Positions 750-56,716 of a stretch of 64,000 bases of DNA are shown piece after piece (position 1 is the first letter of the stretch; each line of letters begins with the position of its first letter). The DNA lies in assembly GCA_964404025.1 (NCBI GenBank), contig CAYOIJ010000001.1, positions 22,685-86,684 of the forward strand, in the 5' to 3' direction. Made by a program: the position numbers and the translations under genes. The DNA is from an uncultured Pseudomonadales bacterium. GTDB taxonomy: Bacteria; Patescibacteriota; Microgenomatia; UBA1400; PJMF01. Under the pieces are notes generated by a model. That model did no database searches and was not told the DNA's origin. It was given only the letters and a program-made list of their open reading frames with translations.

Positions 750-1844
750 ATGAGTGATAACACTATTAGCTCTACTACGCAAGAATTTCTTGATGTTTTT
801 GATATTACCAACGACATGGTAATCCTTAAAGATGGTGTGGTATCCATCATTATGCAAATAGGCACCATGAACTTTAGTTTATTAGCAGAACAAGAACAAG
901 ATGCCATTATGTATACCTATGGTGCCTTGCTTAATTCTCTCAACTTCCCCATTCAAATTAATATTCAATCCAACATCAAAGACGCAACTAGATACCTAAG
1001 ATTACTCGAAAACCAGGCTAGACAAGCTAAATCTAGAGAGAAGGCTAAATTAATTGAAGAATACCGAGATTTTGTAGCTAATTTAATTCGCGAACGCAAT
1101 GTTTTAGAAAAAAAATTCTTTGTAGTTATTCCCACCAATGCTGGAGAAATGGGTTTATACACCGCAGAAAGCGTACTACCTGGTAAAACTAAATTTAACA
1201 TTAATAATTTTGAAAAAACCATCCTAATCGAAAAAGCCTCTACAATACTAGATCCTCGTAGAGATCATTTAATAGCTCAATTTAATAGGATTGGTTTATT
1301 CGCTAGACAACTAGATACTCAAGAAATTATTCAAAATTTTTATATTAACTACAATCCAGAATCAACAGAAGGACAAGAAGTTACTAATAGTGAAAGCTAT
1401 ACAACTCCTATGGTTAGGGCCAGTCTAACAAGCAATCAAAAACTTAGCACAGTAGAACAAGATAATGTCCAAGCTCAGACGCAGACTCAAGCTCCGGCCC
1501 CAAAACAAACACCAGCACAAACACCAGTTTCAGCGCCCAAGCCAGCACCAATACCGACATCACCACCAACACCGGCATCGTCACCAGAGATAACCACTGA
1601 ACCAACTGAAAGCTTTGTACCAAGCGAGATACCAAAAACCGACACCAATCCAACAAACTTCAGTGAAGAAATTGCGCAACTTCAAACAACAAGCCCCGAA
1701 CCAAATCAACCCTCACTAATAAATAATGATGCTCAAGAAACAAACTTAAACGTCCAAAACAATCAATTTAATCAAAAAATGATGCCACCTAGCTCAATCA
1801 ATCAAGTATTAAATAAAAATGAGTCAGGGCCCGTGGAGCTTTAA
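750..1844 (+). CDS. VirB4 N-terminal-domain-like protein with no Walker motifs and a Pro/Thr/Gln-rich low-complexity tail. Translationally coupled (TAATG overlap) to the downstream VirB4 ATPase
   Basis: N-terminus QEFLDVFDITNDMVILKDGVVSIIMQIGTMNFSLLAEQEQDAIMYTYGALLNSLNFPIQINIQ resembles the N-terminal signature of VirB4/TcpF/TraE ATPases (KDG...inf.l.s.eEq..i...f...ln.l....qi). No TM segment. Its stop overlaps the start of the next gene. Confidence 0.4.
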   Translation: MSDNTISSTTQEFLDVFDITNDMVILKDGVVSIIMQIGTMNFSLLAEQEQDAIMYTYGALLNSLNFPIQINIQSNIKDATRYLRLLENQARQAKSREKAKLIEEYRDFVANLIRERNVLEKKFFVVIPTNAGEMGLYTAESVLPGKTKFNINNFEKTILIEKASTILDPRRDHLIAQFNRIGLFARQLDTQEIIQNFYINYNPESTEGQEVTNSESYTTPMVRASLTSNQKLSTVEQDNVQAQTQTQAPAPKQTPAQTPVSAPKPAPIPTSPPTPASSPEITTEPTESFVPSEIPKTDTNPTNFSEEIAQLQTTSPEPNQPSLINNDAQETNLNVQNNQFNQKMMPPSSINQVLNKNESGPVEL

Positions 1845-4039
1845 TGTCAATTTTAGATTTTAACCTACCATTTCTTAACAAGAAAAAACCCAGCATCGAC
1901 CCTGTAGAACAAAAACAAATTGATGCAGAACAATACACCCAAGAAAAATTGAGAGATTTTTCTCGAGGCCTTGTTACCATTCAAGACATTATTGCTCCAG
2001 AAGCAATTGAGGTGGACTTCACCTATCAAAAAATTAATTCTACCTATACTAGAACTCTTTTTGTAGCTGGCTATCCCAGGAGTGTTCCTGCTAACTGGCT
2101 GTCCCCTCTAATTAATTTTCCTACTCAAGCCAATATTTCAATGTTTATTTTTCCTTCAGACACTAGTGAAATTTTAGACAACTTGAAGAGAAAAATTACC
2201 GAAATGGAGGCTGAGATTACCTCCGATGTCAGGGCGGGTAAAATTAGCAATATTAATACTGAAATTAAACTAAATGATGCTCGAGTTATGCGTGAACAGC
2301 TTGCTGCCGGATCAGAAAGATTTTTTCAATTTAGCTTATATGTCACCATCAAGAGTGAAAGTAAAGAGCAGTTAGAAAAAACCACTAAAGCTATTCAATC
2401 TGCTCTAGGATCTTTATTAATTGTTTCCAAAAAGTCAGCCCTACAAATGGATGAGGGCTTTAAAACAACCATTCCCATGGGTGTAGATCGCCTACTTGTT
2501 ACCAGAAACATGGACACCACTTCTCTTGCCACTACCTTTCCATTTACCTCCTCAGAACTAACCATGGAAACTGGTATTGTTTATGGGATTAACGAGCACA
2601 ATGACTCTCTGGTTATATTTGATCGCTTTCAAATGGAAAACGCCAATATGGTTATTTTTGCTAAGTCTGGAGCTGGTAAATCTTATACGGTTAAACTAGA
2701 AATTTTGCGACAGCTTATGTTCGACACAGAAATTATTGTTCTTGATCCAGAGCATGAGTATGAAGAGCTTTGTAAAATGGTGGGCGGAGAATACATTAAT
2801 TTTACTTTTGGTTCAAAAGCTAAGATTAATCCTTTCGATTTGTCCAACCTATATGAAGAAGGAGAAAACGAGCTTGGACAAAAAATTCTTTCACTTCACG
2901 GCTTGCTAAAAGTAATGTTGGGCGAAATGACTCCCCAACAAGAAGCAATACTAGATCGCGCTATTGTTGCTAGTTACAAGGCTAAAGGCATAACTCCAGA
3001 TCCCAACACACAAACCAACACTCCCCCACTAATGGAGGATCTTTATAAAGCCTTAATTGGCATGGAGCAAGATGAAAGCGCCGACTTAGCTGCTCGTTTA
3101 GAAAAATTTATTACCGGTTCTTTTCGCGGTATTTTTGATAAAGCTTCAAACATAGATATTAAATCTCCCTTCACAGTATTTAGTGTTAAAGAAATGGAAG
3201 AAGAACTGCGACCAATAGCAATGTATGTGATTCTTGACTTTATTTGGACAAAAATTAAGAAAGATCTCAAAAGAAGAATTTTGGTTATTGATGAGGCCTG
3301 GTACTTTATGATGCATCAGGACAGTTCAGCTTTTGTTTATTCAATGGTTAAAAGAGCGCGAAAATATTATTTAGGAATTACCACTATTACTCAAGACGTA
3401 GAAGACTTTTTACGAAATGATTATGGGCGAGCTATTGTTTCCAACTCCTCCATCCAGTTTTTAATGAAACAATCCACATCTTCAGTTCCTCTTTTAGCTC
3501 AAACTTTTTATCTGTCTGAAGGTGAAAGACAGCTCTTGGTTACTTCAGATGTTGGTGAGGGAATCTTTTTTGCTGGACAAAACCACGTGGCACTACGGGT
3601 AATTGCTTCTGATAAAGAACATCAGGTAATTACTACTGATCCAGAGGAAATTTTGAGTCAAAGAAAACAAGCTAGTGCTGAAAGAGAATTACGCCGCCAA
3701 AGACTTGAACAAAGCTCATCTGTAGAAACGCCAGAAGAAAAAGTTGGATCCTTTGAGACACCAAGTAAAATTCCCTGGCAAGGAGAAGAAATTAATTTTA
3801 CAACAGACGTATTGGAAGACGCAACAAATAAAGCAGAAAAAAATCTAAAACAAAATCCAGTGTTACCTCAAATTAAAAATATTTTTGATGGCGAAGGTCA
3901 TGCACAAACAGAATCTCAAAATATAGAGACTAAAAACCAAAATGCAAATCCTGATAGTCCTACAAGCACGGAGAGCGAAGAATCAAACAATAAACAGCAC
4001 TTTGGCTATTCAATTGACGACTATCAAGCTCCAAAATAA
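1844..4039 (+). CDS. virB4: VirB4/TraE/TcpF-family (AAA_10) type IV secretion / conjugative transfer ATPase
   Basis: Walker A VIFAKSGAGKSYTVK, Walker B RRILVIDEAWYFM, GITTITQDVEDF motif. VirB4-type N-terminal region (IAPEAIEVDFTYQKINSTYTRTLFVAGYPRSV). 731 aa with an unusual roughly 130-aa low-complexity acidic/polar C-terminal tail. Confidence 0.8.
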   Translation: MSILDFNLPFLNKKKPSIDPVEQKQIDAEQYTQEKLRDFSRGLVTIQDIIAPEAIEVDFTYQKINSTYTRTLFVAGYPRSVPANWLSPLINFPTQANISMFIFPSDTSEILDNLKRKITEMEAEITSDVRAGKISNINTEIKLNDARVMREQLAAGSERFFQFSLYVTIKSESKEQLEKTTKAIQSALGSLLIVSKKSALQMDEGFKTTIPMGVDRLLVTRNMDTTSLATTFPFTSSELTMETGIVYGINEHNDSLVIFDRFQMENANMVIFAKSGAGKSYTVKLEILRQLMFDTEIIVLDPEHEYEELCKMVGGEYINFTFGSKAKINPFDLSNLYEEGENELGQKILSLHGLLKVMLGEMTPQQEAILDRAIVASYKAKGITPDPNTQTNTPPLMEDLYKALIGMEQDESADLAARLEKFITGSFRGIFDKASNIDIKSPFTVFSVKEMEEELRPIAMYVILDFIWTKIKKDLKRRILVIDEAWYFMMHQDSSAFVYSMVKRARKYYLGITTITQDVEDFLRNDYGRAIVSNSSIQFLMKQSTSSVPLLAQTFYLSEGERQLLVTSDVGEGIFFAGQNHVALRVIASDKEHQVITTDPEEILSQRKQASAERELRRQRLEQSSSVETPEEKVGSFETPSKIPWQGEEINFTTDVLEDATNKAEKNLKQNPVLPQIKNIFDGEGHAQTESQNIETKNQNANPDSPTSTESEESNNKQHFGYSIDDYQAPK

Positions 4040-4050
4040 AAAATTGCCCC

Positions 4051-4080
4051 TTGTCAAATGTGGAAAACACTGTGTATAAC
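4051..4080 (+). promoter_or_regulatory. Putative dnaA promoter. A TTGTCA -35-like element and a TATAAC/GTATAA -10-like element overlap two DnaA-box-like 9-mers (TGTGGAAAA 4059-4067, TGTGTATAA 4071-4079)
   Basis: Read directly. Each 9-mer has one mismatch to TGTGGATAA (the reverse complement of TTATCCACA). 60-90 nt upstream of the dnaA ATG. Confidence 0.3.
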
Positions 4081-4143: not shown

Positions 4144-5652
4144 ATGTCAGAACAAGCTTATGATTCTCAAACCATAGAACAAATTTGGCAAATGGCTAAA
4201 AATGATCTAGAAAGCAGCTTAAGTCCAGCAATTTTTAATACATGGATTCTACCTAGCCCACTCACCCAACTGAGAGTTATTGATGAATTAAAAGCTGAGG
4301 CAACAATAAATTGCATGACTGCATTTCACGCAACCAATCTAAAATCCAATCTTTATTTACCAATTAAAACCGCTTTAGAAAAATATGTAAATCGACCGCT
4401 AGAAATAAATTTTGTGGTGGGTGATGGTAAAAAAACAGAAAAGCAAAACGACGGTTTTGTTCAAACCGACCATCGCCTCAGTTCTAAAAAAAAACAGACT
4501 CACAAAACAAATGAAAGTACAGACGGACCAGGACTAGTTTCCCCCACCGTAGACGAGTTGTTTTCTTACTCAAATATTGAGAATAATGCTATTGATAGGT
4601 TTAATTTAAGAGCTAAACAAATAGGTCTTAAAAACGATTTTACTTTTAACAATTTTGCTGTTGATCCTAGCAACCAAATGGCTCATGCCGCTGCTACCAA
4701 GGTTGCCAGTAGTCCCGGTTCAAGCTACAACCCTCTCTTTTTATATGGCGGGGTGGGCGTGGGCAAAACACATCTTATGCACGCCATTGCCAACTACATT
4801 TTAAAAAACGATCCAGACATCAATATTGTTTTCTGTACTGGCGAACAATTTACTAACGAAATTATTCGCTCAATTCAAAACAAAAACTCAGCTCAATTCC
4901 GCAATAAATATCGACGCGCTGAATTATTACTATTAGACGACATCCAATTTATTGCTGGTAAAAAAAGTGTTCAAGAGGAATTTTTCCATACTTTTAATGC
5001 TTTGACTGGAAATAATTCGCAAGTTATTTTAACCTCCGACCTTCCTCCCCACGAAATTAGTTTGCTAGAGGATAGAATTCGCTCACGCTTTGAGGCTGGT
5101 CTAATGATTGATATTCAACAACCAACTCTAGAACTTCGTACAGCAATTTTACTACTCAAAGCACAATCTAATCACATCAACATTCCCAACCACCTCGCCC
5201 AAAGAATTGCTGCTCAAGTTGACAGTGCTAGACGAATTGAGGGAATTATTAAAAAAATTCGCAGCGCCGTTGAACTACAAGGAGCAGAGATCAATGTTGA
5301 GTTAATCGACTTAATTCTTAAAAAAGAAATTAGACATAATCATAAAAAAATGCTCAAGGTTAAGCCACAAGACATTATTCAAAGCGTTAGTAACCACTTT
5401 CACCTTAAGCAAAGCGCTATTAAGGGTGGAAGGCGCAATAAAGAGTTGGTTAAGGCTCGCCATATTGCCATGTACCTTTTAAGACAGGAACTAAATAGCT
5501 CTCTTGAAGAAATTGGCCAGTGGTTTGGTGGTCGTGATCACACCAGCGTTATCCATGCCGTTAAAAAAATTGAAAAGGAGTTGTTGGTTGATGAGACAAT
5601 CATTCAAGATGTTTCTGCTTTAAAAATGTCTTTAGTAGCCATTTCTAAATAA
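4144..5652 (+). CDS. dnaA: Chromosomal replication initiator protein DnaA
   Basis: AAA+ Walker A LFLYGGVGVGKTHLMHAIANYI, Walker B LLLLDDIQFIAGK. C-terminal DnaA HTH (IAMYLLRQELNSSLEEIGQWFGGRDHTSVIHAVKKIE). 502 aa. Confidence 0.95.
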   Translation: MSEQAYDSQTIEQIWQMAKNDLESSLSPAIFNTWILPSPLTQLRVIDELKAEATINCMTAFHATNLKSNLYLPIKTALEKYVNRPLEINFVVGDGKKTEKQNDGFVQTDHRLSSKKKQTHKTNESTDGPGLVSPTVDELFSYSNIENNAIDRFNLRAKQIGLKNDFTFNNFAVDPSNQMAHAAATKVASSPGSSYNPLFLYGGVGVGKTHLMHAIANYILKNDPDINIVFCTGEQFTNEIIRSIQNKNSAQFRNKYRRAELLLLDDIQFIAGKKSVQEEFFHTFNALTGNNSQVILTSDLPPHEISLLEDRIRSRFEAGLMIDIQQPTLELRTAILLLKAQSNHINIPNHLAQRIAAQVDSARRIEGIIKKIRSAVELQGAEINVELIDLILKKEIRHNHKKMLKVKPQDIIQSVSNHFHLKQSAIKGGRRNKELVKARHIAMYLLRQELNSSLEEIGQWFGGRDHTSVIHAVKKIEKELLVDETIIQDVSALKMSLVAISK

Positions 5653-5713
5653 ACACATTAAAAAAACTGATTTATGCTTATTTTTTAAACAAAAACAAAC
5701 ATAAACAATACAC

Positions 5714-5722
5714 TTTTCCACA
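5714..5722 (+). promoter_or_regulatory. DnaA box, one mismatch (TTTTCCACA)
   Basis: Read directly. 15 bp upstream of the perfect box and in the opposite orientation. Confidence 0.5.
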
Positions 5723-5736
5723 AACCTGAAAAACTC

Positions 5737-5745
5737 TGTGGATAA
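5737..5745 (-). promoter_or_regulatory. Perfect DnaA box (TGTGGATAA on +, which is TTATCCACA on -)
   Basis: Exact 9-mer read at 5737-5745. Confidence 0.75.
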
Positions 5746-5860
5746 AGTATGAATAAACTGTGAAAAAGCTTGAATAATTATTAACCCCTTGTTTATTAAA
5801 CTTAAACTTATGCTAAGTTCTTCTAAAAAGCTCACAAGGAAATTCACTACTTTATGCCAT

Positions 5861-5869
5861 TTATTCACA
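5861..5869 (+). promoter_or_regulatory. DnaA box, one mismatch (TTATTCACA)
   Basis: Read directly. Confidence 0.5.
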
Positions 5870-5937
5870 AAAAAATTAGACCTAAAAAGAACATTTTTTT
5901 TGAGTAATTTCATCGTTTTCGTGAATAAATTTTCACT

Positions 5938-6005
5938 TTCCCACCACACCTACTACTACTATTACTATTTATATATAAATTAATTATAGAAATTAAAATT
6001 TATCA
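5938..6005. repeat. GC-cluster (CCCACCACACC), then six tandem trinucleotides TAC TAC TAC TAT TAC TAT (5951-5968), then an AT-rich tract (5969-6005). This architecture resembles DnaA-trios followed by a DNA unwinding element
   Basis: Read directly. The order DnaA box, GC cluster, 3-nt periodic repeat, AT-rich region matches the described bacterial basal unwinding module. Confidence 0.5.
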
Positions 6006-6011
6006 GTTACA

Positions 6012-7160
6012 ATGAAGTTTATGAAAATAATCGCTCTACAAGAAAATATTAAACAAGAACTTGTTTATTTACAAAAAATTATACCAAGTAGACCACAATT
6101 ACCAATTTTATCTTCTATTTTTCTTAAATCCCAGGATAATAAATTAGTTCTGGCCGCAACAGACCTATATCTAGGTATGCGGTCTAGCACAGTGGTTGAG
6201 GTTAAAGAAAAAGGATCTCTAGTTGTTGATGGTGATACTTTTCGTAGTTTAATTTTTTCCCTTTCTCCTGGAAAAATTACTCTAGAGTTAGTAGACTCTG
6301 TTTTGAAAATAACCCAGGGTAAAACAAAAATTAAATTAAGCTGTCAATCTACCGAAGAATATCCTAAATTTCCTGATGTCAGTGGTGACTCTTTTAAGTT
6401 ACAAACAACAGATTTGGAAAAGATTCAAAAATTAGTAATCTTTGCTACTAGCACTGATCAAACAAGACCGGTTCTAACATCGTTATTAATGAAATTTTCT
6501 GACAAAGGTTTGACCGTTGTCGGAACAGATGGTTTTAGATTAGCCAACCTTGAGCTTAATGAACTCAAATTCTCTTTTAATAAAAATCTAATGGTTCCGG
6601 CCAAAGCACTAAGTGAATTGTTGAGAATAGCTAAGCAGTGCCAGAGTGACGAAGTGGAAATAATTGTAGCTGAAGAATTAAAACAGCTTTTATTTAAGGT
6701 TAATGGTATTGAGTTTTTTGTCAGATTAATCGAGGGAGATTATCCACCCTATCAAAAAATTATTCCTCCAAGCTTTCGCTTAAAAGCACAAATTGATGGC
6801 GAGGAGTTTCTAGATCAACTTAAAAGAGCACAAATTTTTTCAAGAGAGAGTTCGAATATTGTTCGCTTGTCATTTAAAAATGAAAATAAAAACAATTATT
6901 TGATAATAAAATCAATCTCCCCAACTTACGGAGAATATGTTGGAGAGATGTCCATTGAGATAGATACTGAAATTTTAAAGCAAGAATTAAACGAACTACA
7001 AATAGCTTTTAATGTTTTGTACTTAATTGATTTCATTAACGCAGTTGACACAGAAAAAATATCTTTAAGCGTAAACGAAAGCTTAAAACCCGCGAAATTT
7101 ACCAATCCATCAGATAAAAACTATTTATATATTAGCATGCCGTTCAGAGTCAACGAATAA
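6012..7160 (+). CDS. dnaN: DNA polymerase III beta sliding clamp
   Basis: Position after dnaA. 382 aa. The N-terminus MKFMKIIALQENIKQELVYLQKIIPSRPQLPILSSIFLK...LAATDLYLGMRS matches the DnaN N-terminal signature (R.TLPILSN.L....L.L.ATDLE). Confidence 0.85.
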   Translation: MKFMKIIALQENIKQELVYLQKIIPSRPQLPILSSIFLKSQDNKLVLAATDLYLGMRSSTVVEVKEKGSLVVDGDTFRSLIFSLSPGKITLELVDSVLKITQGKTKIKLSCQSTEEYPKFPDVSGDSFKLQTTDLEKIQKLVIFATSTDQTRPVLTSLLMKFSDKGLTVVGTDGFRLANLELNELKFSFNKNLMVPAKALSELLRIAKQCQSDEVEIIVAEELKQLLFKVNGIEFFVRLIEGDYPPYQKIIPPSFRLKAQIDGEEFLDQLKRAQIFSRESSNIVRLSFKNENKNNYLIIKSISPTYGEYVGEMSIEIDTEILKQELNELQIAFNVLYLIDFINAVDTEKISLSVNESLKPAKFTNPSDKNYLYISMPFRVNE

Positions 7161-7181: not shown

Positions 7182-7328
7182 ATGAAAAGAACCTGGAATC
7201 CTAAGAAAAAAAAGCGTTTAAGAATGCATGGCTTTTTAAAAAGAATGTCTACTTTGGGTGGTCGAAGAATTTTAGCTAGACGCAGAGCAAAAAAACGAAA
7301 AAAACTGACCGTAATTAAAAAAGCCTAA
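7182..7328 (+). CDS. rpmH: Ribosomal protein L34
   Basis: Not in the ORF track because it is only 48 aa. Hand translation gives [48 protein letters not shown], the classic L34 sequence. Directly precedes rnpA. Confidence 0.85.
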
Positions 7329-7370
7329 ATTTTTAACAATTTTTCTTTTTTTAGAGTAAAATTAAATTTA

Positions 7371-7736
7371 ATGTTGGCAAAAAAATATCGCCTCAATTTA
7401 ACTTTGACAGAAAATAGTCAAATGTTTAAGAGTGGCTTAAGCCAACAATTTACAGGCAAAAGCTTGTTGTTTTATTATCGGCCAAATAAAACTAAATTGA
7501 AGATCGCTGCCCTAGCCCCCTCAAGAATCTTCCCAAAAGCTTATCAGCGTAATCGCTACAGACGGCTACTTTACAACTTAATTATTAAAAAAAATAAAGA
7601 AATGTCGGGGGCTGGAAAATACAATCTATTTGATAAAAAAATTGATTTAATTATTGTTTACAAAGATCGCAATTTTAAAAATAGTGATTTAGAAGAAGAT
7701 TTAAATAAATTTTTAGAGAAATATGCGGATATATAA
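7371..7736 (+). CDS. rnpA: RNase P protein component
   Basis: 121-aa basic protein immediately after rpmH. Conserved RNR..RRL segment (YQRNRYRRLLYN). Canonical rpmH-rnpA synteny. Confidence 0.75.
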   Translation: MLAKKYRLNLTLTENSQMFKSGLSQQFTGKSLLFYYRPNKTKLKIAALAPSRIFPKAYQRNRYRRLLYNLIIKKNKEMSGAGKYNLFDKKIDLIIVYKDRNFKNSDLEEDLNKFLEKYADI

Positions 7737-7905
7737 GCTTTTAAGCACAATTAGACACAATATTATGTATAGTGTTTTTGGCTATTCCTCGGTGTGTGGT
7801 CAGACACCAAGCTGTAGTCAATATACTGCTCTAGAAATAAAAAAGAATGGTACAATTATCGGGTTAGCGAAAGGAATTTGGCGAGTGCTTAATTGTCGCC
7901 ACTAA
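7723..7905 (+). CDS. yidD: Membrane protein insertion efficiency factor YidD
   Basis: 60 aa with the YidD Cys motif (GQTPSCSQYTALEI...GTIIGLAKGIWRVLNCRH). Overlaps rnpA by 14 nt and precedes yidC. Confidence 0.7.
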   Translation: MRIYKLLSTIRHNIMYSVFGYSSVCGQTPSCSQYTALEIKKNGTIIGLAKGIWRVLNCRH

Positions 7906-7912
7906 GAGAATT

Positions 7913-8935
7913 ATGGGATTTTTAATTACTTTTTTCAGTGAAGTTTTATTATTTTTTAATGGCGCGCTGGGCAGTGTTGGTCTAGCTCTTATAGTTTTTA
8001 CTATAATTATTCGTTTGTTAATTTTGCCATTGACCCTACCAAGCATCAAGTCAAGTCAAAAAATTAAAAAACTTCAACCAGAATTAAAGAAAATTAAAGA
8101 AAAATTTAAAGGAGACAAACAGGGTTATGCTCTTGCTCAATCTCAGCTTTATAAAAGTTATAATATTAATCCCCTAGCTGGTTGTTTACCTCAAATAATT
8201 CAGCTAGTTATTTTAATTATTTTGTATCGGGCAATTATTGGCTTATTTGATCAATCAAATAGCCTAAACTTTAATTTTTTATGGACTGACCTTAGTCAAC
8301 CAGATAAACTATATATTTTCCCAATTTTAGCAGCACTTAGTCAATTTATTTTATCCTTGATGATTTCTCCAGCTACTCAAACTAGAGATGTAGTGTCAAA
8401 CAAAACCCAGGACGAGCTGTTGAAAAAAGCTAATGAAAAGGAAGAGGACATTGCTGAAATGGCTTCTACCATGCAACAGCAAATGATGTTTTTAATGCCA
8501 ATTATGACAGGTGTAATTGCTTTAAGGTTGCCATCAGGCCTAGCCCTTTACTGGATAATGGGAACTATTTTTAGTATTGTTACTCAGTATTTTGTGTCTG
8601 GATTGGGAGGAATTGCTGTTTTTTGGAATAATAATATTGCTAAAAAAGGGCTTTTTGGAGCTAAGCTTTTACCAGAAGAACAAGGCAAGAACTTTTTGCT
8701 AGAAGAAAACAAGCAAGAAAAGATAGTTAAAGAAGCTCCTTTAAAAAAACTATTAAAAAAAAGTGGTACCAGCAAAGAAACCACAGAACTAGCTGAACTT
8801 TTAATAAAAAAAGGAGCCAGCACAGAGGCTTTACCAGCAAAAAACACTAGGGCAACTAAAACAAAGGCTCAGGAAAAAATTAAAAAAAACCGTCGGCAAA
8901 AAAAACGAGCAGCTAAAAAAAAGAAACGCTCTTGA
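7913..8935 (+). CDS. yidC: Membrane protein insertase YidC/Oxa1 family with a Lys-rich C-terminal tail
   Basis: YidC core motif YNINPLAGCLPQIIQLVILIILY. Multiple TM segments. Basic ribosome-binding tail. Ends with a TGA stop. Confidence 0.85.
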   Translation: MGFLITFFSEVLLFFNGALGSVGLALIVFTIIIRLLILPLTLPSIKSSQKIKKLQPELKKIKEKFKGDKQGYALAQSQLYKSYNINPLAGCLPQIIQLVILIILYRAIIGLFDQSNSLNFNFLWTDLSQPDKLYIFPILAALSQFILSLMISPATQTRDVVSNKTQDELLKKANEKEEDIAEMASTMQQQMMFLMPIMTGVIALRLPSGLALYWIMGTIFSIVTQYFVSGLGGIAVFWNNNIAKKGLFGAKLLPEEQGKNFLLEENKQEKIVKEAPLKKLLKKSGTSKETTELAELLIKKGASTEALPAKNTRATKTKAQEKIKKNRRQKKRAAKKKKRS

Positions 8936-8944
8936 AAGACTAAT

Positions 8945-9400
8945 ATGAAAATTGAAGAATATTTAAGTAGGTTAATTGAATATCTTGGAATTGAGGGAGA
9001 AATTGAAATTAAAATTGAAGAGGGAGAGGAAAGAGTTCAAATAGATGTTCAAACAGATGAAAAAGATACAGCTCTATTAATTGGTAGTCGAGGGGAAACC
9101 CTTAGCGCCATTGAGCTTCTAACTAAGTTAAGCTTTAAAGACGATTACGAAGATAAGCGAATAACTTTAGACATCAATGGCTATAAGTTGCGACAAGAGG
9201 AACGATTAAAAGAAAAGGCTCTAGATTTAGCTCAAAGGGTTTTAGAAACTGGACAGCCCTATGAGTTTCGTTATTTAAACTCTTATGAGAGACACCTAGT
9301 TCATGAGGTGATTGCCAAAGAAACAGGTTTGGAAAAAATAAATACTCATTCTGAGGATAGAGATTTGGGTAGAGTCTTAATAATTGAGGTTAAAAATTAA
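8945..9400 (+). CDS. jag: Jag/KhpB-like RNA-binding protein (KH and R3H domains)
   Basis: KH-like DTALLIGSRGETLSAIELL. R3H-like YEFRYLNSYERHLVHEVIAKETGL. Canonical position after yidC. Confidence 0.7.
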   Translation: MKIEEYLSRLIEYLGIEGEIEIKIEEGEERVQIDVQTDEKDTALLIGSRGETLSAIELLTKLSFKDDYEDKRITLDINGYKLRQEERLKEKALDLAQRVLETGQPYEFRYLNSYERHLVHEVIAKETGLEKINTHSEDRDLGRVLIIEVKN

Positions 9401-34286: not shown

Positions 34287-34290
34287 AGGG

Positions 34291-34364
34291 TGCGTGTGCT
34301 AGGACTTGAACCTAGAACCGCCAAGGTATAAGCTTGGTGCTCTAACCAATTGAGCTACACACGC
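34291..34364 (-). tRNA. tRNA with anticodon UAU. Ile-type, reading AUA, is inferred from the anticodon and D-arm only. 74 nt, with CC encoded after the discriminator A
   Basis: Hand-folded cloverleaf. Acceptor GCGTGTG/CACACGC is a perfect 7 bp. U8 A9. D-stem GCTC/GAGC with loop AATTGGTTA. Anticodon stem CCAAG/CTTGG with loop C-U-UAU-A-C. Variable loop CGGTT. T-arm CTAGG-TTCAAGT-CCTAG. Discriminator A. Confidence 0.8.
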
Positions 34365-37756: not shown

Positions 37757-38401
37757 TTAAATCATTTTTAACAATTGATACCAAATTATTTGAAAAATTA
37801 AAAAATATTGTTGCCTTAAATTTAAAGAAAGAGTATCTTGTTCAAGTTTTTTCCAAGCTTGTAAGCTTGTGTGCCTTTCATTATCTAGCACCCACAAAGA
37901 AAAAAGACCTGGTTTTACTTGATGTCTCCACAAGCACCAATTAGGATCAATTTTTTTTAAAGCATTAGCTTCATTGACGGGTAGTGGTCTAGGACCGACT
38001 AAAGCCATTTGACCTTTTAAGACGTTAATTAATTGAGGAAGTTCATCAAGTCCGCTATGAGATAAAAACTTGCCAATTTTCAAAAAGCGAGGGTCGTCAC
38101 CAATTTTAAACATTGGTGTTGGGGCATAGTTTAAGTCAACAAGTTGTTGGTGGTTTTTAGAGCGAAGTGATTCAGCATTTTTAACCATAGTGCGTAATTT
38201 ATAAACGGTAAAAGTTTTTTTATATTGGCCCATTCTTTTTTGTTTAAAAATAATGGGACGACCAATTTTCCATAATAAAAATGGCCAAGTGATGATAGAT
38301 ATTGGTAATAAAATTATTATAAGTATTATTACTAAGACTAGGTCAACTGTTCTTTTAGATTGTTTGTTGAAACTAGGATGAAGGAAATTAATTTTTCTCA
38401 T
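37757..38401 (-). CDS. Polyprenyl-phosphate sugar phosphotransferase (Bac_transf / WbaP-PglC-like priming transferase)
   Basis: N-terminal TM. FKQKRMGQYKKTFTVYKLRTM and the diagnostic ALVGPRPL motif. 214 aa. Confidence 0.8.
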   Translation of the reverse strand: MRKINFLHPSFNKQSKRTVDLVLVIILIIILLPISIITWPFLLWKIGRPIIFKQKRMGQYKKTFTVYKLRTMVKNAESLRSKNHQQLVDLNYAPTPMFKIGDDPRFLKIGKFLSHSGLDELPQLINVLKGQMALVGPRPLPVNEANALKKIDPNWCLWRHQVKPGLFSLWVLDNERHTSLQAWKKLEQDTLSLNLRQQYFLIFQIIWYQLLKMI

Positions 38402-38485
38402 CTTAAAGATTATCTAAAATAATATTTAATCATTCTATCGAAAAATTTAATTAAAGATAGTCTTAATGTTTTTTTATGTTATCAT

Positions 38486-39331
38486 TTGAATGTTTTAAAA
38501 GGAAATGATTTTTTAGAAAATAGAATGAAATTTAGTAAAAAACAGTGTTATTGGTTAGATTTTTTATCGGCAATGACACAAAAAGAAATTAAAGCACGTT
38601 ATAAACGAGCTACTTTCGGTTTTCTATGGATAATATTAAATCCTCTTTTACAGATGTTGGTCTTGGGTTTTGTTTTTCAGTTTTTTGTTCCAATCCGAGT
38701 TGACAATTATTTTCTATTTTTATTTGCAGGATTGTTGCCTTGGAATTTTTTGTCTCAGAGTTTAACTAAAACAACACCAGCTTTTTTTTATGAAAGAAAT
38801 TTAATTAAAAAAGCTAAATTTCCTAGAGAAGGAATTGTTTTATCAATTATTTTTTCCAACTTTTTTCATTTTTTGGTAGCTTTATCTCTGCTTTTGGTAG
38901 CTTTAATTGGTGATAAATTATTGATTGAAAGTTACGGTTTTGTACAAATAATTTTTTACATGTTAAGAATGTTATGGCTTTTACCGGCGATGTTACTATT
39001 AATAGTTTTTACCACTGGTTTATCCTTAATTACCTCATCTCTTAATGTCAGATTTCGTGACATAAATTTTATTGTTCAATTAACAGTAATGCTGTGGTTT
39101 TATGCCACACCAGTGATTTACACATTAAATTTATTGCCAGAATTTTTGTGGCCGATTTTTTATTTAAATCCGATGACTGCTATAATTGAATTGTTTCATC
39201 ACGCATTGATGGGTCTACCGATTACAATAACCAGCTTTATTTGGATGACGGTTGGAGTAATTTTCTGTTTTTTTTATTTTGGTTTACGAATTTTTAGCAG
39301 AGAAAGTAAAAATTTTGATGATTGGTTGTAA
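38486..39331 (+). CDS. wzm: ABC-2 family polysaccharide export permease (Wzm/TagG-like)
   Basis: Six TM segments. KEIKARYKRATFGFLWIILNPLLQMLVLGFVF signature of ABC-2 permeases. Paired with the following ATPase. Confidence 0.7.
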   Translation: MNVLKGNDFLENRMKFSKKQCYWLDFLSAMTQKEIKARYKRATFGFLWIILNPLLQMLVLGFVFQFFVPIRVDNYFLFLFAGLLPWNFLSQSLTKTTPAFFYERNLIKKAKFPREGIVLSIIFSNFFHFLVALSLLLVALIGDKLLIESYGFVQIIFYMLRMLWLLPAMLLLIVFTTGLSLITSSLNVRFRDINFIVQLTVMLWFYATPVIYTLNLLPEFLWPIFYLNPMTAIIELFHHALMGLPITITSFIWMTVGVIFCFFYFGLRIFSRESKNFDDWL

Positions 39332-39343
39332 TTTTGGAAAAAT

Positions 39344-40054
39344 ATGACTGTTTTACAAGAAAAGACAATAAAAAAACGCAAAGTAAGCAATGAGGTTGCT
39401 ATTTCTTTATCTAATATTGGAAAGAAATATACCATTACTCACGAAAAACCAACTCTTGTAGAGGATGTTAGTAGAATATTACATTTTCAAAAAAAACAAG
39501 AATATTGGGCATTAAAGAACGTTGACTTAAAAATTTATAAAGGGGAAAAAGTTGGCCTTTATGGACCTAATGGAATTGGGAAGACTACGATATTGAAGAT
39601 TATTGCTGGTATTAGTGCTCCTACTGAGGGCAAAATAAAAACTAAAGGACGAACTGTTTCTTTAATAGACTTGGAAGCTGGTTTTCATCCTGATCTAACT
39701 GGACAGGAAAACATCTTTTTAAACGGCTTAATTATTGGTATGGAAAAAAATGAAATAAAAGAAAAATTTAATAAGATTGTTGATTTTGCTGGTATTGGTG
39801 ATTTTATTACCGCACCTTTGTACACCTACTCTAGTGGCATGAAGTTGAGATTGGGTTTTAGTGTGGCAATTCATTCTAATCCGGAAATATTACTTCTTGA
39901 TGAGGTAATCAATGCAGGAGATGAAAAATTTCGAGAAAAAGTTTGGAACGTTTTATTAAAAATGTTTGATGAAGAAATTACAGTGTTGATGGCCAGTCAG
40001 TGGTTGGAGATACTAAACAAACACATGTCGAAGATTATAAGTTTGTCTAAATAA
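39344..40054 (+). CDS. wzt: ABC transporter ATP-binding protein (Wzt/TagH-like, short form without a C-terminal glycan-binding domain)
   Basis: Walker A GLYGPNGIGKTT. Signature YSSGMKLRLGFSVA. Walker B ILLLDE. 236 aa. Confidence 0.85.
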   Translation: MTVLQEKTIKKRKVSNEVAISLSNIGKKYTITHEKPTLVEDVSRILHFQKKQEYWALKNVDLKIYKGEKVGLYGPNGIGKTTILKIIAGISAPTEGKIKTKGRTVSLIDLEAGFHPDLTGQENIFLNGLIIGMEKNEIKEKFNKIVDFAGIGDFITAPLYTYSSGMKLRLGFSVAIHSNPEILLLDEVINAGDEKFREKVWNVLLKMFDEEITVLMASQWLEILNKHMSKIISLSK

Positions 40055-40066
40055 TTGTTTTATTTT

Positions 40067-41113
40067 TTAATCGTTTATTAAAACCTTATAAGCTGATAAA
40101 AAGAAAACCTCCTTTTTTCTAAATCCACTTTTTTTTAAAACACTAATAAAATCTGTAATTTTATAAAATTTATACCAGTTCTGGTTAAAATTTAACTTTA
40201 ATATTGATTTTTTCAGCGAAAGAAACAAGTAGCCATATTCAATATCCTTGGTTGAGGAATCGGGAGTAAAGTGAATAAAAGTAATTTTTTCATTCTTAGT
40301 TTTCAATAAGGAGTAACTTTTATCCAATGCTTTTGGTTTTTTTTGACTCAAATACAGGCAATACACTGTTTGTTCTACTAAGTGAATCTGATATAAAAAT
40401 TCTACGCCTCTGTAGTAGTCTCTAATTATTCTTTCATACAAGGCATTACCAATGTTTTCTAACCAGTGATTTAAGTTTTTAAGGGTTCGCTGAGGATTTA
40501 CTGATTCTCTATTTATGCATAGCAAGCCACTATTTAATTGCTGAGGTAGGTTTTTCATTTTTAAATACTTTTGTGCCTCAATCGGTGAAATTACTTTAAA
40601 GTTCAAGTAATCCTGCAAGTACAATGAAAATAAATTTTTTGCATCTTTATCATTTACCCAGTCGATAATTTTTTTAGGAGAAGAAAAAAATAAACAGTCG
40701 GCATCTATAACAATGATTTTCTTGTATTGAGATAAAATTGGAGTGAATAATTTTTTTCCTGCCCAGGTTTTTTGATACATCTCCTCTGCAATTGAATGTT
40801 TTTTAAGCAGCGTTAGTGTTTGGGAATTAAGTTTTTCTAATAATTCAAATTCAGAACCCATTAATTTTATAAGCTTTTTGTGAAACTTTGTAAGTGATCC
40901 GTCATTGACGAAAATGATTTTGACATTTTTCACGAATTTTTTAAAACTAATTGCACTCAAAATTCCTAAATATATGTATTGATTGCCAACAGTAATAAAA
41001 GCAGCGGTGTTTTTTATTAATTTATTTTTAGAATTTTTCTTAAAAGAAATAATTAATACATTGACAAATATGGCAGTATTGACAATGTATCTTTTTAAAC
41101 GATGTTTGATCAT
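40067..41113 (-). CDS. Hypothetical protein, possible nucleotide-sugar-dependent glycosyltransferase (DxD-like KIIVIDADCLFF)
   Basis: 348 aa. N-terminal hydrophobic segment. Only weak motif evidence. Confidence 0.35.
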   Translation of the reverse strand: MIKHRLKRYIVNTAIFVNVLIISFKKNSKNKLIKNTAAFITVGNQYIYLGILSAISFKKFVKNVKIIFVNDGSLTKFHKKLIKLMGSEFELLEKLNSQTLTLLKKHSIAEEMYQKTWAGKKLFTPILSQYKKIIVIDADCLFFSSPKKIIDWVNDKDAKNLFSLYLQDYLNFKVISPIEAQKYLKMKNLPQQLNSGLLCINRESVNPQRTLKNLNHWLENIGNALYERIIRDYYRGVEFLYQIHLVEQTVYCLYLSQKKPKALDKSYSLLKTKNEKITFIHFTPDSSTKDIEYGYLFLSLKKSILKLNFNQNWYKFYKITDFISVLKKSGFRKKEVFFLSAYKVLIND

Positions 41114-41248
41114 AAGTTGTTGTGTTTTAAGTTTTAGTTTTTATAAGTAAATAATAGACTAATCTTTTACCAGCAGGGTTCAGGTAATGATATACTATGT
41201 GCAATTATTCTACAATAAAGGCATGGGAATTATTTTTCGATATAAATT

Positions 41249-42625
41249 ATGAAAACAAAGGTTATTTTTGTTAATCCACCATTTTATAGGTCAGAAAATT
41301 CAAACGCATCCAATAACTTCAAGGTGGATGGACCGAGATTTCACAAGATATATAGGAACATCCCTCAATTATTAAAAATTTGGAATAAATTTAGAGATCC
41401 TACGGTTAGATTTGGTGTAAGAGCTGGGTCTAGATGGCCGTGGACTTGGGATCAGCCCCTAGAACCAATTCACTATCCATTTATGATGGCTTATGCAACT
41501 TCATATTTGATTTCAAAAGGAATAGAATCAAAATTAATTGATTCTATCGCTGAAGAAGACTACTCTTATTCTAACTTTCTCAAAAAAATAAAAAAGGAAA
41601 AAGCAGATATTGTTGTCATGGAAACCTCTATGATTTCTTTGGACATTGATATGTGGTTGGCTAAAAAAATTAGTAGCTTTAGCGAGGTAGGAATAGCTGG
41701 CTCTTATGTAACTTATTATGCTCAAAGTATGCAAAATAAATATCCTTTTATCAGCTATTTGTTGCCAGGAGAATATATAAAATCATCTTTTAAAATGGCA
41801 GTCAAGAAACAAAAGGGTGTTTATAAATCAGAAATTATAAGTGACTTGGATGCATTGCCTTTTCCATACAGAGACTATCCAGAGTCAATAAAGTATTACG
41901 ATCCTACGATGCCAACCCCCAAGCCTCAACTGCAAATTTATGGGAGCAAGGGTTGTCCCTTCAAATGTTCGTTTTGTCTTTGGACTCAAACCATGTATTT
42001 TCATAAGTTCACACTGAGAGACCCTAAGAGAATTGCCGAAGAAATTAAGCATTGTGTAAAAAAATATAAATTTAAAAGTATTTTTTTTGATGATGACACT
42101 TTTAATATTGGCAATGAACGCATAAGTGAATTATGCGACCTATTAAAAGAAATTAATTTACCATGGACGATGATGGGGAGACTAGATTGTTCTCCTGATT
42201 GGTTGATTGACAAAATGGTTGCTTGTGGCTGTGTTGGCATGAGGTTTGGTTTGGAGACTTTTAATAAAAAAGTTAGTAAAAGAGTAGATAAGGGATTGGT
42301 CGATCAGAATCTTTACAAGAAAATAAAAAGATTGAGTGATAAGTATCCTAAATTAATGTTGAGAATATTCATGATGAAAGATTTACCAGGTCAGACAAAT
42401 CAAATGCATCAATCTGATATGAAAAAATTACAAGGTCTAGGATTTAAAGAATTTGGTGATAAATATAGACAAATTCAAGTATCTGTTTGTGCGCCTTTTC
42501 CCGGAACTAAACTGTTTGAAGAAATTAAGGACAAAGTTGATTCTGATAAATTAGACGATTATCGTTTATATGATGGGCACTTAAATACAATAATGAAATA
42601 TTTTAATAAAAATAATTCAAACTAG
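41249..42625 (+). CDS. B12-binding-domain radical SAM enzyme
   Basis: CxxxCxxC cluster YGSKGCPFKCSFCLW. N-terminal roughly 180 aa consistent with a cobalamin-binding Rossmann-like domain (ADIVVMETSM...). 458 aa. Confidence 0.7.
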   Translation: MKTKVIFVNPPFYRSENSNASNNFKVDGPRFHKIYRNIPQLLKIWNKFRDPTVRFGVRAGSRWPWTWDQPLEPIHYPFMMAYATSYLISKGIESKLIDSIAEEDYSYSNFLKKIKKEKADIVVMETSMISLDIDMWLAKKISSFSEVGIAGSYVTYYAQSMQNKYPFISYLLPGEYIKSSFKMAVKKQKGVYKSEIISDLDALPFPYRDYPESIKYYDPTMPTPKPQLQIYGSKGCPFKCSFCLWTQTMYFHKFTLRDPKRIAEEIKHCVKKYKFKSIFFDDDTFNIGNERISELCDLLKEINLPWTMMGRLDCSPDWLIDKMVACGCVGMRFGLETFNKKVSKRVDKGLVDQNLYKKIKRLSDKYPKLMLRIFMMKDLPGQTNQMHQSDMKKLQGLGFKEFGDKYRQIQVSVCAPFPGTKLFEEIKDKVDSDKLDDYRLYDGHLNTIMKYFNKNNSN

Positions 42626-42636
42626 TATTTTCAGTT

Positions 42637-43494
42637 ATGAAAATTTTAATTGTTGGGGCTTCAGGATTTATCGGTTCAGCACTACATTTTTCTTTGGCAA
42701 AAAAAACAAAGGTGATAGGTACTTATTACAAAAACTACGTTCCTGGCACTTATTATTTAGATGCCAATAGTCCTGATAATATAAAAAACTTTTTAAAAAA
42801 ACATACAGATATTGATTTTATTATTTTGAGTCATGGTGTTAAAGATTTAGTAAAGTGTGAAAATGATTATTCGTTGGCTTATCAAAACAACGTTCAACAA
42901 ACAATTAACATTGTTGAATCATTAAAATGCTTTAATAATAAAGCTAGGGTTATATATATATCATCTAATTATGTTTTTGATGGAAAAAAAGGTTTATATA
43001 AAGAGTATGATAAAAAAAATCCAAGAACTATTTACGGCAAGACTAAGTCTTTGGCAGAAGACTATTTAATTAGCCAGGATGTTCCTTGGACAATTATTAG
43101 AACGTCTTCTGTCATAGGTTTAAAAAGTAGTTTTATTAGCTATGTTAAACGGGAGTCTTTGAAAAAGAATAAAATATTTCTCTATAAAAATGTAAACATT
43201 AACCCGACTCCAGCAACAATGTTGATGGATTTTTTTGATTTACTAGTCTTTGATAGTGATTTAAACAGTACTAAAAATCAAATCCTTCATTTTGTAGATA
43301 AAAAAATTGAAAGCAAATATAGCTTTGTTATAAATAACTACAAAGTATTGAGTTTAGAAGTTGAGATAGAGCCAATAATAAGTGAGAGTCCACTTTATTT
43401 TGAGAATTTAACAATGAAGGTTACTGATAAATTTTACTCTCAACTAAGCTCATCTTATGACAAATATTTAAGAGAATCACTAACTGAAAACTAA
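42637..43494 (+). CDS. NAD(P)-dependent sugar-nucleotide reductase, RmlD-like (dTDP-4-dehydrorhamnose reductase family)
   Basis: MKILIVGASGFIGSAL Rossmann motif. YISSNYVFDGKKGLYKEYDKKNPRTIYGKTKSLAE matches the RmlD S.DYVFDG...Y.E.D...P...YG.SK pattern. 285 aa. Confidence 0.6.
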   Translation: MKILIVGASGFIGSALHFSLAKKTKVIGTYYKNYVPGTYYLDANSPDNIKNFLKKHTDIDFIILSHGVKDLVKCENDYSLAYQNNVQQTINIVESLKCFNNKARVIYISSNYVFDGKKGLYKEYDKKNPRTIYGKTKSLAEDYLISQDVPWTIIRTSSVIGLKSSFISYVKRESLKKNKIFLYKNVNINPTPATMLMDFFDLLVFDSDLNSTKNQILHFVDKKIESKYSFVINNYKVLSLEVEIEPIISESPLYFENLTMKVTDKFYSQLSSSYDKYLRESLTEN

Positions 43495-43496
43495 TT

Positions 43497-44690
43497 TTAT
43501 TTCAATAATGAATTGACTATATTAACTAGTTTTTTGATTTCGATGTCCATATTAGCTTGTTCAGTCACATACTTGTAACCTTTTTCTATTATTTTTTCTT
43601 TTAAATCTGGATTCTTTAAATAAAAAGATATTTTTTTTTCTAGATCTCTGTTGCCACTACTGACTATTAGTTTGTTGTGCAGAGAGTGTTTTTTATTAAT
43701 AAATCTTGCATCGGTAATCACAAATCCCTTGCAAGCTAACGCTTCCAATGTTCTAAGAGTAACAACATTCAATCTTAAATGATCTAGGGCTGTAAAATTC
43801 AAACAAATTTTACTTGAATTATATAGACTTCTTACATGAGCTTGTGATATTTTTCCTCTGGATATTTGAGAAAAAATTGAACTGTCATAGTAGGTATAAC
43901 TATAAATGTTTGCAATTATTCTGACTTTTAAATTATTTATTTCAATTTCTAATTTTTGTTTTTTGTCTTCTATTTTTAAAATGAAATTATTGGCTATCTT
44001 TTTTAGATGTCTGAATTTATTTTTTAAATATATCAGCACAGCTTTAAAATTACGTTTATCTGAAGCAAAATTTTTAATACTTATTTTAATTTTTTTATAT
44101 ACTTTTAACTGTTTTGATTCTTCTTTTTTTATAATTTCTTTAGAGTTGGCTTGATTCCAGCCTCCAAATAATCCAAACTTGAATTTTAATGGTGGAAGCA
44201 GATATTTTTCTGTATGTTCTTTATTTTTAATATTATTCCCAACATAAACGACATCATAAGAATTCTTTTTTACTTTTTTCTCAGGGAAAAATATTTCTGT
44301 ATCTACACAAAAAGGGAAATAAAATACTTTTTTATTTTTTAATTTAGTTTTGTATGATTCATACAATTTTTTTGAAACAAATATATAGGCATCGTATTTA
44401 TATTTGCTAATTTTAAACAAAATCTTTTCAGATTTTTCTTGATAAGGATCTTGCAAATAGAGAACGTGTTTTTTTGCCCAATTTTTGTTTAAAGGCGTTT
44501 CGTCCAGATAGATCATCAAATCAATCTTTTTTAAGGGTAGATTGATGGCAGAATATAATCTTGCACGAATCTTATTAGGTTTATTAATTCTTTTACATAG
44601 TGATTCTGCATACAACTCATCTCCAACAACATAGTTATTGTTTTTTAGAGATCCTGTATGGTATTTTGTATAGAAACCAATATTAATCAT
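43497..44690 (-). CDS. CgeB-like glycosyltransferase (Glyco_trans_1_2 C-terminal domain)
   Basis: C-terminal LRLNVVTLRTLEALACKGFVITDA...KKISFYLKNPDLKEKIIEKGYKYV fits the R.FEa.acG...kl.yyl.np..r motif of CgeB-type GT-B enzymes. Confidence 0.5.
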   Translation of the reverse strand: MINIGFYTKYHTGSLKNNNYVVGDELYAESLCKRINKPNKIRARLYSAINLPLKKIDLMIYLDETPLNKNWAKKHVLYLQDPYQEKSEKILFKISKYKYDAYIFVSKKLYESYKTKLKNKKVFYFPFCVDTEIFFPEKKVKKNSYDVVYVGNNIKNKEHTEKYLLPPLKFKFGLFGGWNQANSKEIIKKEESKQLKVYKKIKISIKNFASDKRNFKAVLIYLKNKFRHLKKIANNFILKIEDKKQKLEIEINNLKVRIIANIYSYTYYDSSIFSQISRGKISQAHVRSLYNSSKICLNFTALDHLRLNVVTLRTLEALACKGFVITDARFINKKHSLHNKLIVSSGNRDLEKKISFYLKNPDLKEKIIEKGYKYVTEQANMDIEIKKLVNIVNSLLK

Positions 44691-45616: not shown

Positions 45617-45634
45617 TGATATAATATTTTTGTA

Positions 45635-46051
45635 TTAGAGGCTATAATATTTTTTTTGCACTGAACCGAGAAAAGGTCCTTGTTTGACTTCAAATATTTC
45701 AGCTTGTGTTAACAGTTCGAAGCTATGACCCAAAGATCTTTGAAATAAAATATCCCCCTTTTTTAAAATTTCAGTTTGAAATAATTTCCCTTGCTTGTTG
45801 TAGAAATTTACTTTAACTTTTCCCTTAACAATGTAAAAAACCTCCTGCAAGCTATCCACAGAACATTTTTGAAAGCAATGGTAATGAGCTTTTAATTTAG
45901 CACCTTTGGGCTTTTTATGATAACCAACTTGCAAATAATCTTCCTTTTTTGAAAAAAAATCCAAATTATCAATTGGAAACTGTGCCCTCACAATATAAGC
46001 AATTTCTTTGTTGTTGTAGAGGATTTTTTTGATGTTTTCTGTTTTTGACAT
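45635..46051 (-). CDS. Cupin-fold WxcM/FdtA-like protein (possible sugar-nucleotide ketoisomerase)
   Basis: 138 aa. GYHKKPKGAKLKAHYHCF... resembles the WxcM-like C-terminal cupin domain. Lies in a glycan locus. Confidence 0.5.
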   Translation of the reverse strand: MSKTENIKKILYNNKEIAYIVRAQFPIDNLDFFSKKEDYLQVGYHKKPKGAKLKAHYHCFQKCSVDSLQEVFYIVKGKVKVNFYNKQGKLFQTEILKKGDILFQRSLGHSFELLTQAEIFEVKQGPFLGSVQKKYYSL

Positions 46052-46242
46052 ATTTGGTTAAAAACTAGCGGTGTAGATTAAATACAAAATACAAATAAAA
46101 AACACTAATAGCAACCAGTATTTAATTTCGATCAATTTATGACATAATATACCAGATAATCAACATTTTATTTATTAGAGCTTTTACTCTTTTGAGGTTT
46201 AGATTTATTAAACTTCACTGTTAGAAATTATTAAAAAAATCA

Positions 46243-48222: not shown

Positions 48223-48247
48223 AGAAAAGTGTTTCTAGTAACAGACA

Positions 48248-52607: not shown

Positions 52608-52615
52608 AAGATAAA

Positions 52616-53614: not shown

Positions 53615-53635
53615 AATTTTTGCGAAGTTTATTTT

Positions 53636-55168: not shown

Positions 55169-55169
55169 T

Positions 55170-56669: not shown

Positions 56670-56716
56670 GAGGCTCTACAACTATAATAAAATAAATCAC
56701 AACTAACAAGTTATTT

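Follow-up and report, generated by a model that had tools for sequence, protein, structure and literature searches.

A probable chromosomal replication origin with a Bacillus subtilis-type unwinding module between dnaA and dnaN in a Patescibacteria bacterium

The 359-bp spacer between dnaA and dnaN (positions 5653-6011, 24.5% GC) in a 64,000-nucleotide stretch of contig CAYOIJ010000001.1, which was analysed as a whole and is hereafter called the window, most probably serves a Patescibacteria bacterium as its chromosomal replication origin (oriC), and its sequence suggests that it opens by a basal unwinding system (BUS) of the Bacillus subtilis type; we put the probability of this reading at about 0.85. 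It draws on the elements and their geometry, their conservation, a GC-skew switch, a minimum of duplex stability and conserved DnaA residues, all of which were observed directly. The initial annotation had proposed an origin here, and had staked it on two results that came out in its favor: the skew switch maps to this place, and the spacers of related bacteria keep both the DnaA boxes and the repeat. Pfam searches identified the flanking genes as that annotation had named them, dnaA (4144-5652, + strand) encoding a 502-aa protein with Bac_DnaA (1.9e-64) and Bac_DnaA_C matches, and dnaN (6012-7160, + strand) encoding a sliding clamp with three DNA_pol3_beta domains. A cluster of DnaA boxes lies in non-coding DNA adjoining dnaA, as is expected of an oriC. 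Relatives were compared across 80 genome loci, 11 of them from Patescibacteria.

Six DnaA-trios occupy 5950-5967 (- strand), reading CTA CTA CTA CTA TTA CTA on the top strand and 3'-GAT GAT GAT GAT AAT GAT-5' on the lower strand. Lower-strand 3'-GAT-5' is the published DnaA-trio consensus, the motif that DnaA binds on single-stranded DNA (PMC6669920, PMC10721633). The three-nucleotide repeat and its trio-like nature had been recognized from the start, but in the register TAC; the functional register, CTA, begins one base earlier, at 5950. The next two triplets (5968-5973, - strand; TTT ATA on the top strand) also carry the required central A in the lower strand and bring the array to eight by the published NAN rule. 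A BUS is expected to have at least three consecutive 3'-NAN-5' trios, with GAT preferred (PMC8287927), and the eight NAN triplets found here (5950-5973) include six that are GAT or AAT. The run of six YTA units (5950-5967) is the longest on either strand of the window, and a run of six anywhere was obtained in 2 of 300 third-order Markov simulations. Its position is also that of DnaA-trios, as had been claimed, since two tandem boxes pointing at the repeat lie 4 bp and 12 bp from it.

These two trio-proximal boxes are both on the + strand and oriented toward the trios, which is the orientation of a BUS, and their distances fit its spacing of about 12-13 bp for the upstream box and about 4 bp for the downstream one. 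The upstream box, ATTTTCACT (5929-5937, + strand; the equivalent of B. subtilis DnaA-box 6, 12 bp from the first trio), has four mismatches to TTATCCACA and two to TTWTYCACA, a relaxed consensus derived from the window's own boxes, and the downstream box, TTTCCCACC (5937-5945, + strand; the equivalent of DnaA-box 7, 4 bp from the first trio), has three and two, respectively. A 4-bp spacer, ACAC (5946-5949; GGCC in B. subtilis), separates them from the trios, and all nine Patescibacteria spacers listed have its C at position -1. What had been described as a GC cluster, CCCACCACACC, overlaps the C-rich degenerate box TTTCCCACC and this spacer, and that description was abandoned. The better boxes of the window accept T at positions 3 and 5 (TTTTCCACA, TTATTCACA, TTTTTCACA); two boxes that match this well 8 bp apart have a joint chance of 5e-4 per window position; and the position of the downstream box is occupied in relatives by TTATCCACA (L007), CAATCCACA (L073), GTTTCCACA (L078) or TTACGCACA (L002). 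We read the two sites as probably genuine low-affinity boxes.

The distal trios run into an AT-rich DNA unwinding element (DUE) at 5966-6003, which comprises 38 bp with a single G (5989) and begins with 23 bp of pure A/T (5966-5988); the GC content of 5966-6011 is 0.087. An AT tract after the repeat is therefore present as annotated, although the pure stretch is shorter than the roughly 40 bp first reported. Nearest-neighbour energies placed the least stable duplexes of the whole 64 kb here, at 5959-5988 for 30 bp and at 5960-5999 for 40 bp, so that the minimum of stability sits at the distal trios and the AT tract and the unstable AT-rich element expected of an oriC lies beside the boxes. Elsewhere in the window, a block at about 38000-58000 is low in GC (0.24-0.30, against 0.32-0.40 in the remainder), especially at 54279-54374, and contains a 40-bp pure A/T run that is the window's second least stable duplex.

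The initiator protein also supports a BUS. The window's DnaA aligned to that of B. subtilis in the cryo-EM structure of the BUS (8btg) with E = 1.5e-92 and without gaps through the AAA+ core. In that structure Arg202 and Glu228 hydrogen-bond the trio guanine and Asn187 the adenine, while Ile190 and Ile193 flank the third base (PMC10721633). All five trio-capturing residues are identical in the window's protein (N238, I241, I244, R253 and E279, for B. subtilis N187, I190, I193, R202 and E228), which therefore has the base-capturing residues of the initiator-specific motif by which a BUS is recognized; the arginine finger, R315, is kept as well.

Upstream of the module the spacer holds further DnaA boxes, giving one perfect, two one-mismatch and three two-mismatch boxes within 359 bp. 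The perfect box, TGTGGATAA (5737-5745, - strand, where it reads TTATCCACA), and the rightward one-mismatch boxes TTTTCCACA (5714-5722, + strand) and TTATTCACA (5861-5869, + strand) all lie where they had been annotated. The two-mismatch boxes are TTATTCATA (5748-5756), TTTTTCACA (5759-5767) and the leftward TTATTCACG (5920-5928), all on the - strand, and CTTGAATAA (5769-5777, - strand), with three mismatches, is a possible fourth leftward box. Counted over the whole window, boxes with no more than one mismatch do not stand out in number (23, where 18.5 are expected), but they do in placement, since five of these 23 fall within the 463 non-coding bp that flank dnaA (binomial P = 6e-7). The boxes at 5737, 5748 and 5759 form a leftward, head-to-tail array with 11 + 11 bp from start to start, helically phased, and are the sole phased same-strand box triple on either strand of the 64 kb; similar leftward arrays phased at 10-12 bp lie just 3' of dnaA in L002, L003, L004, L005 and L077. 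The left half of the spacer thus presents one rightward box followed by the phased leftward array, and the right half rightward boxes that point at the trios, a division of orientation also visible in L002-L005 and L077. Inspection of the sequence left of 5737 revealed no second trio array that the leftward boxes could serve. In B. subtilis, the distance and the orientation of distal boxes can vary, their action probably involving looping, while the trio-proximal boxes are fixed in orientation (PMC6669920), and the box layout of the window fits this picture. A second perfect box, at 51332, was rejected as an origin, being solitary, inside an open reading frame (ORF) and outside any cluster.

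The right half also contains a (T/C)WGAGTAAAAA-like motif at 5899-5910 (about columns 258-270 of the alignment described below), conserved in the window, L002, L003 and L004. It stands 37-48 bp upstream of the first trio, with a weaker match in L005 at 27 bp, so that the distances differ by about one helical turn. The motif may represent a weak DnaA box facing leftward, or else the binding site of some other factor.

Two more one-mismatch boxes lie upstream of dnaA, at 4059-4067 and 4071-4079 (both - strand). The initial annotation had set them over a putative dnaA promoter and combined them with the spacer into a bipartite origin; the boxes were confirmed, the bipartite layout is not established, and the boxes look like operators within a promoter. 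The putative promoter/operator (4051-4080, + strand) comprises a -35-like TTGTCA (4051-4056), an 18-bp spacer that encloses the first box, and a -10-like TATAAC (4075-4080) that the second box overlaps; with C as the final base of its -10, it went unreported in a scan for the consensus promoter. The sequence TTGTCA-aa-TGTGGAAAA-cac-TGTGTATAAC is kept nearly base for base in L002-L005 (about 3912-3942 in L002), whose DnaA proteins are 50-65% identical to the window's, and across these loci takes the form TTGYYA..TGTGGAAAA-N3-TGTGTATAAC. The arrangement makes the upstream boxes a likely autorepression operator of the dnaA promoter.

In a bipartite origin, initiation would need the boxes at 4059-4079, brought to the dnaA-dnaN spacer by looping, after the manner of incA/B and incC in B. 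subtilis or oriC1 and oriC2 in Helicobacter pylori. Boxes do flank dnaA on both sides, the upstream pair is conserved, and a distal box of B. subtilis can loop from hundreds of bp away in either orientation (PMC6669920); but the 104-bp spacer upstream of dnaA holds only two boxes, one between the -35-like TTGTCA and the -10-like TATAAC and one over the latter, which is the position for autorepression, neither trios nor an AT-rich element were found in it, and the distal boxes at 5714-5869 downstream could already supply any looping. We consider a bipartite origin doubtful, although with some chance of being right.

Conservation of this spacer was followed outward from the closest dnaA loci of public genomes, which belong to metagenome-assembled genomes of Patescibacteria (candidate phyla radiation, CPR) labelled Pacebacteria or Paceibacterota, with DnaA 50-65% identical to the window's; farther relatives are found in Amesbacteria, Saccharibacteria and WWE3, and then in Firmicutes and Chloroflexota. 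The module of box, spacer, trios and AT-rich DNA precedes dnaN in eight of the nine other Patescibacteria spacers (L002-L005, L007, L073, L077 and L078), in the form of a rightward box or pair of boxes, a short spacer ending in C and then CTA CTA (CTA/TTA...), and the trio array ends 17-40 bp before the start region of dnaN. A MAFFT alignment (A1) of the spacers of five clade members with DnaA proteins 50-65% identical had CCTACTA...ACTA as its longest invariant and best conserved block, the remaining spacer being about 55% identical on average; the comparison of relatives proposed in the initial annotation thus found both boxes and repeat conserved. In WWE3 locus L061 (5640-5700), the tandem boxes TAATGCACA and TATCCACA are followed by CCTC and by a CTA...CTAGTACTA array 3' of dnaA; since dnaN is not adjacent there, the module tracks dnaA and not dnaN. 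Most of the Firmicutes loci in this comparison read TTATCCACA-tAT-yCACA-GCCC-CTACTACTATTACTA, followed by AT-rich DNA, 23-225 bp before dnaN, and the trio array of the window is near identical to Firmicutes arrays such as CTACTACTATTACTACTA. Seven Chloroflexota dnaA-dnaN spacers (L009, L011, L014, L018, L024, L029 and L037) are GC-rich and without a run of CTA/TTA triplets, so that in these bacteria either the origin lies elsewhere or it is built on a different trio sequence.

This pattern bears on the possibility that the origin is here while the repeat plays no active role, as a microsatellite or a piece of the dnaN leader, opening being achieved by boxes and the unstable AT tract without trio binding. 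A microsatellite would vary in unit and length, whereas, across DnaAs that are 35-65% identical and also in Firmicutes, the repeat keeps its sequence, register and strand and its distance to the boxes, unlike the remaining spacer; moreover, the DnaA residues that read the G and A of the trio are intact. The weakness of the proximal boxes and the ease with which AT-rich genomes give short tandem repeats lend a passive repeat some plausibility, and we hold it to be very improbable beside the reading of the array as DnaA-trios.

The location of the origin on the contig was examined by GC skew. The cumulative G-C minimum of the window falls at 6171, near the position of about 5.8 kb that had been predicted for the switch. 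As gene orientation also affects skew, genes of equal orientation were compared: pooled skew was -0.069 for the four + strand genes on the left and +0.160 for the 28 + strand genes on the right, none of which was negative (Mann-Whitney P = 2e-4). The 29 minus strand genes on the right had a skew of +0.018, indicating that the switch does not come from gene orientation. A decomposition of skew gave a replication term of 0.089 and a coding term of 0.071, which predicts slightly negative + strand genes on the left, as observed. In the 4-kb flanks of relatives, skew on the right exceeded that on the left in eight of nine Patescibacteria loci, and the cumulative minima were noisy, so that these short flanks give the origin weak support. 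That the boxes are mere transcriptional operators of dnaA and dnaN, with the true origin elsewhere, as E. coli oriC does not adjoin dnaA, is extremely improbable, because, although the upstream boxes clearly lie within a promoter, the left flank of the skew test is short and gene orientation does not diverge as at an origin, it conflicts with the opposite skew signs of equally oriented genes to the left and right and the minimum at 6171, and leaves unexplained both why six GAT-type trios are conserved at precisely the distance from tandem boxes that B. subtilis has and why the least stable duplex of 64 kb adjoins them.

Several observations weigh against an origin of the BUS type in this spacer. 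The published BUS search rule asks for one box with at most two mismatches no farther than 16 bp upstream of the trios, to which a second box with up to four may be added, and permits a species-specific box motif (PMC8287927); the proximal boxes have three and four mismatches to the E. coli motif TTATCCACA, the better of them one beyond that limit of two, and come within it only through TTWTYCACA, a consensus drawn from the window's own boxes. The Saccharibacteria locus L081 lacks a clear trio run. With a left flank of only 5.6 kb, the skew switch rests on four genes, and the minimum is that of the window, not of the genome. Lastly, the left genes are head-on to the leftward fork, and the right side has no strong gene-strand bias.

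The mechanism that we propose is modelled on B. subtilis and on the further species examined in PMC8287927, and its binding order, ATP dependence, strand capture, site of helicase loading and autorepression are drawn by homology. DnaA would first occupy the strong boxes (the perfect 5737, 5714 and 5861), after which DnaA-ATP would fill the 11-bp phased array (5737-5767) and the weak rightward tandem boxes (5929-5945). From the last box, AAA+ domains would polymerise on the lower strand along the six 3'-GAT/AAT-5' trios (5950-5967), one protomer per triplet, and the stretched duplex would melt into the AT-rich element (5966-6003), where the helicase would be loaded just upstream of dnaN. Bidirectional forks would then depart, leaving the skew switch. 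Separately, dnaA would be repressed by its own product through the two promoter boxes (4059-4079).

A further reading joins two propositions, that the clade has a looping-dependent variant of the BUS and that the complete module already existed in a very early bacterial ancestor; taken together they are speculative and rather unlikely. Under the first, with no strong trio-proximal box, trio loading would depend on the conserved phased leftward array about 200 bp upstream, and the conserved GAGTAAAAA-like element that precedes the trios by 37-48 bp might also serve, bound by DnaA or another factor. The second is suggested because Patescibacteria and Firmicutes have nearly the same array, CTACTACTAnTACTA, which was not seen in the sampled Chloroflexota spacers.

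Apart from the origin elements, nothing seems to be encoded in the spacer. Rfam gave no match in 5500-6200, even at E = 1, and two spacer ORFs (5632-5949, - strand, and 5789-5983, + strand) were rejected as genes, having no Pfam match and differing by indels in the spacers of relatives. In a scan for the sigma-70 consensus, promoter-like sites were no commoner than in shuffles and none fell on the + strand of the spacer; as no terminator-like site was found in it either, read-through from dnaA to dnaN is possible. The start of dnaN is ambiguous, being ATG 6012 in the longest ORF and ATG 6021 in the Joint Genome Institute (JGI) gene call for L001, a 7.8-kb JGI metagenome contig (sample 3300044603) that carries an identical copy of the region. 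A Shine-Dalgarno-like sequence stands at neither ATG, and the AT-rich unwinding element reaches within 9 bp of the first.

After dnaN, on the same strand, come rpmH, rnpA, yidC and jag/khpB (7182-9400, + strand), genes more usually found upstream of dnaA and divergent from it. Directly upstream of dnaA are type IV secretion-like genes (750-4039, + strand), namely a TraC-like gene and one encoding a VirB4/TraG P-loop ATPase of 731 aa. Their transcription runs toward the origin and against the leftward fork, head-on. The genes occupy the same positions in L001 and L002, and the closest relative keeps this synteny. Only one RNA gene was detected in the window, for a tRNA-Ile whose anticodon is TAT (UAU), at 34289-34364 (- strand). 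Such a tRNA is uncommon in bacteria, where AUA is usually decoded by a lysidine-modified CAU tRNA.

Among known systems, the closest likeness is to the incC region of B. subtilis oriC with its BUS (Richardson 2016/2019; Pelliciari 2021, 2023), whose module was taken from the supplementary table of Pelliciari et al. 2021 (PMC8287927) and complemented to the top strand. There it reads TTATCCACA, AATCCACA, GGCC, CTACTATTACTTCTACTA, TTTTTTATA (PMC8287927), and in the window ATTTTCACT, TTCCCACC, ACAC, CTACTACTACTATTACTA, TTTATATATAAA. Position between dnaA and dnaN and orientation (boxes, trios, AT-rich DNA, dnaN) are the same, as are the tandem boxes 8 bp apart from start to start, the succession of box (9), box (8), 4-bp spacer, trios and AT-rich DNA, and the 12-bp interval between upstream box and first trio. 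In both, the lower strand carries GAT/AAT trios with an AT-rich flank after them, distal upstream boxes occur in either orientation, and the five trio-contacting DnaA residues are the same. They differ in the mismatches of the proximal boxes (0 and 2 in B. subtilis, against 4 and 3 in the window), in the trio array, which is more regular in the window (four GAT, AAT, GAT), in the rpmH-rnpA-yidC-jag genes, placed 3' of dnaN and not upstream of dnaA, and in the upstream cluster on the dnaA side, which in the window consists of two boxes. The incA/B region of B. subtilis is described as holding more boxes than that.

Close as well are clostridial and other Firmicutes dnaA-dnaN origins, of which the oriC2 unwinding region of Clostridioides difficile (PMC7561715) is an example; the loci compared from Clostridium, Paenibacillus, Peribacillus and others have the same module as the window, with the difference that their upstream box is usually perfect. 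In H. pylori (oriC1/oriC2, PMC8235120) dnaA is likewise flanked by box clusters, and trios stand beside a box in the unwinding half, but both halves are established parts of its origin, whereas the upstream pair of the window looks like a promoter operator. With E. coli oriC, which consists of a DnaA-oligomerisation region and a DUE with 13-mers, the window shares phased, oppositely oriented boxes of mixed affinity that adjoin an AT-rich unwinding element, and weak sites expected to need DnaA-ATP; E. coli oriC differs in not adjoining dnaA and in a diverged trio arrangement. That origin uses integration host factor (IHF), a site for which was not identified in the window.

A BUS has been predicted in 85% of 2070 origins (PMC8287927), and the origin described here belongs both to this kind and to the most common type of bacterial origin, extending a known mechanism, and no new one, to a poorly studied lineage. 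A full-text literature search returned no co-mention of DnaA-trios and Patescibacteria, although DnaA boxes and CPR are mentioned together in one paper, and no Saccharibacteria or other Patescibacteria occur in the listed portion of the supplementary table of BUS origins (PMC8287927); an element of this kind is not new, but its explicit description in Patescibacteria may thus be. Fixing the origin on the contig helps in finishing the genome, orienting replichores and estimating growth rate from coverage in an uncultured lineage. A module of the B. subtilis type in Patescibacteria, with the same spacing and identical DnaA contact residues, supports the view that this module is ancestral in bacteria.

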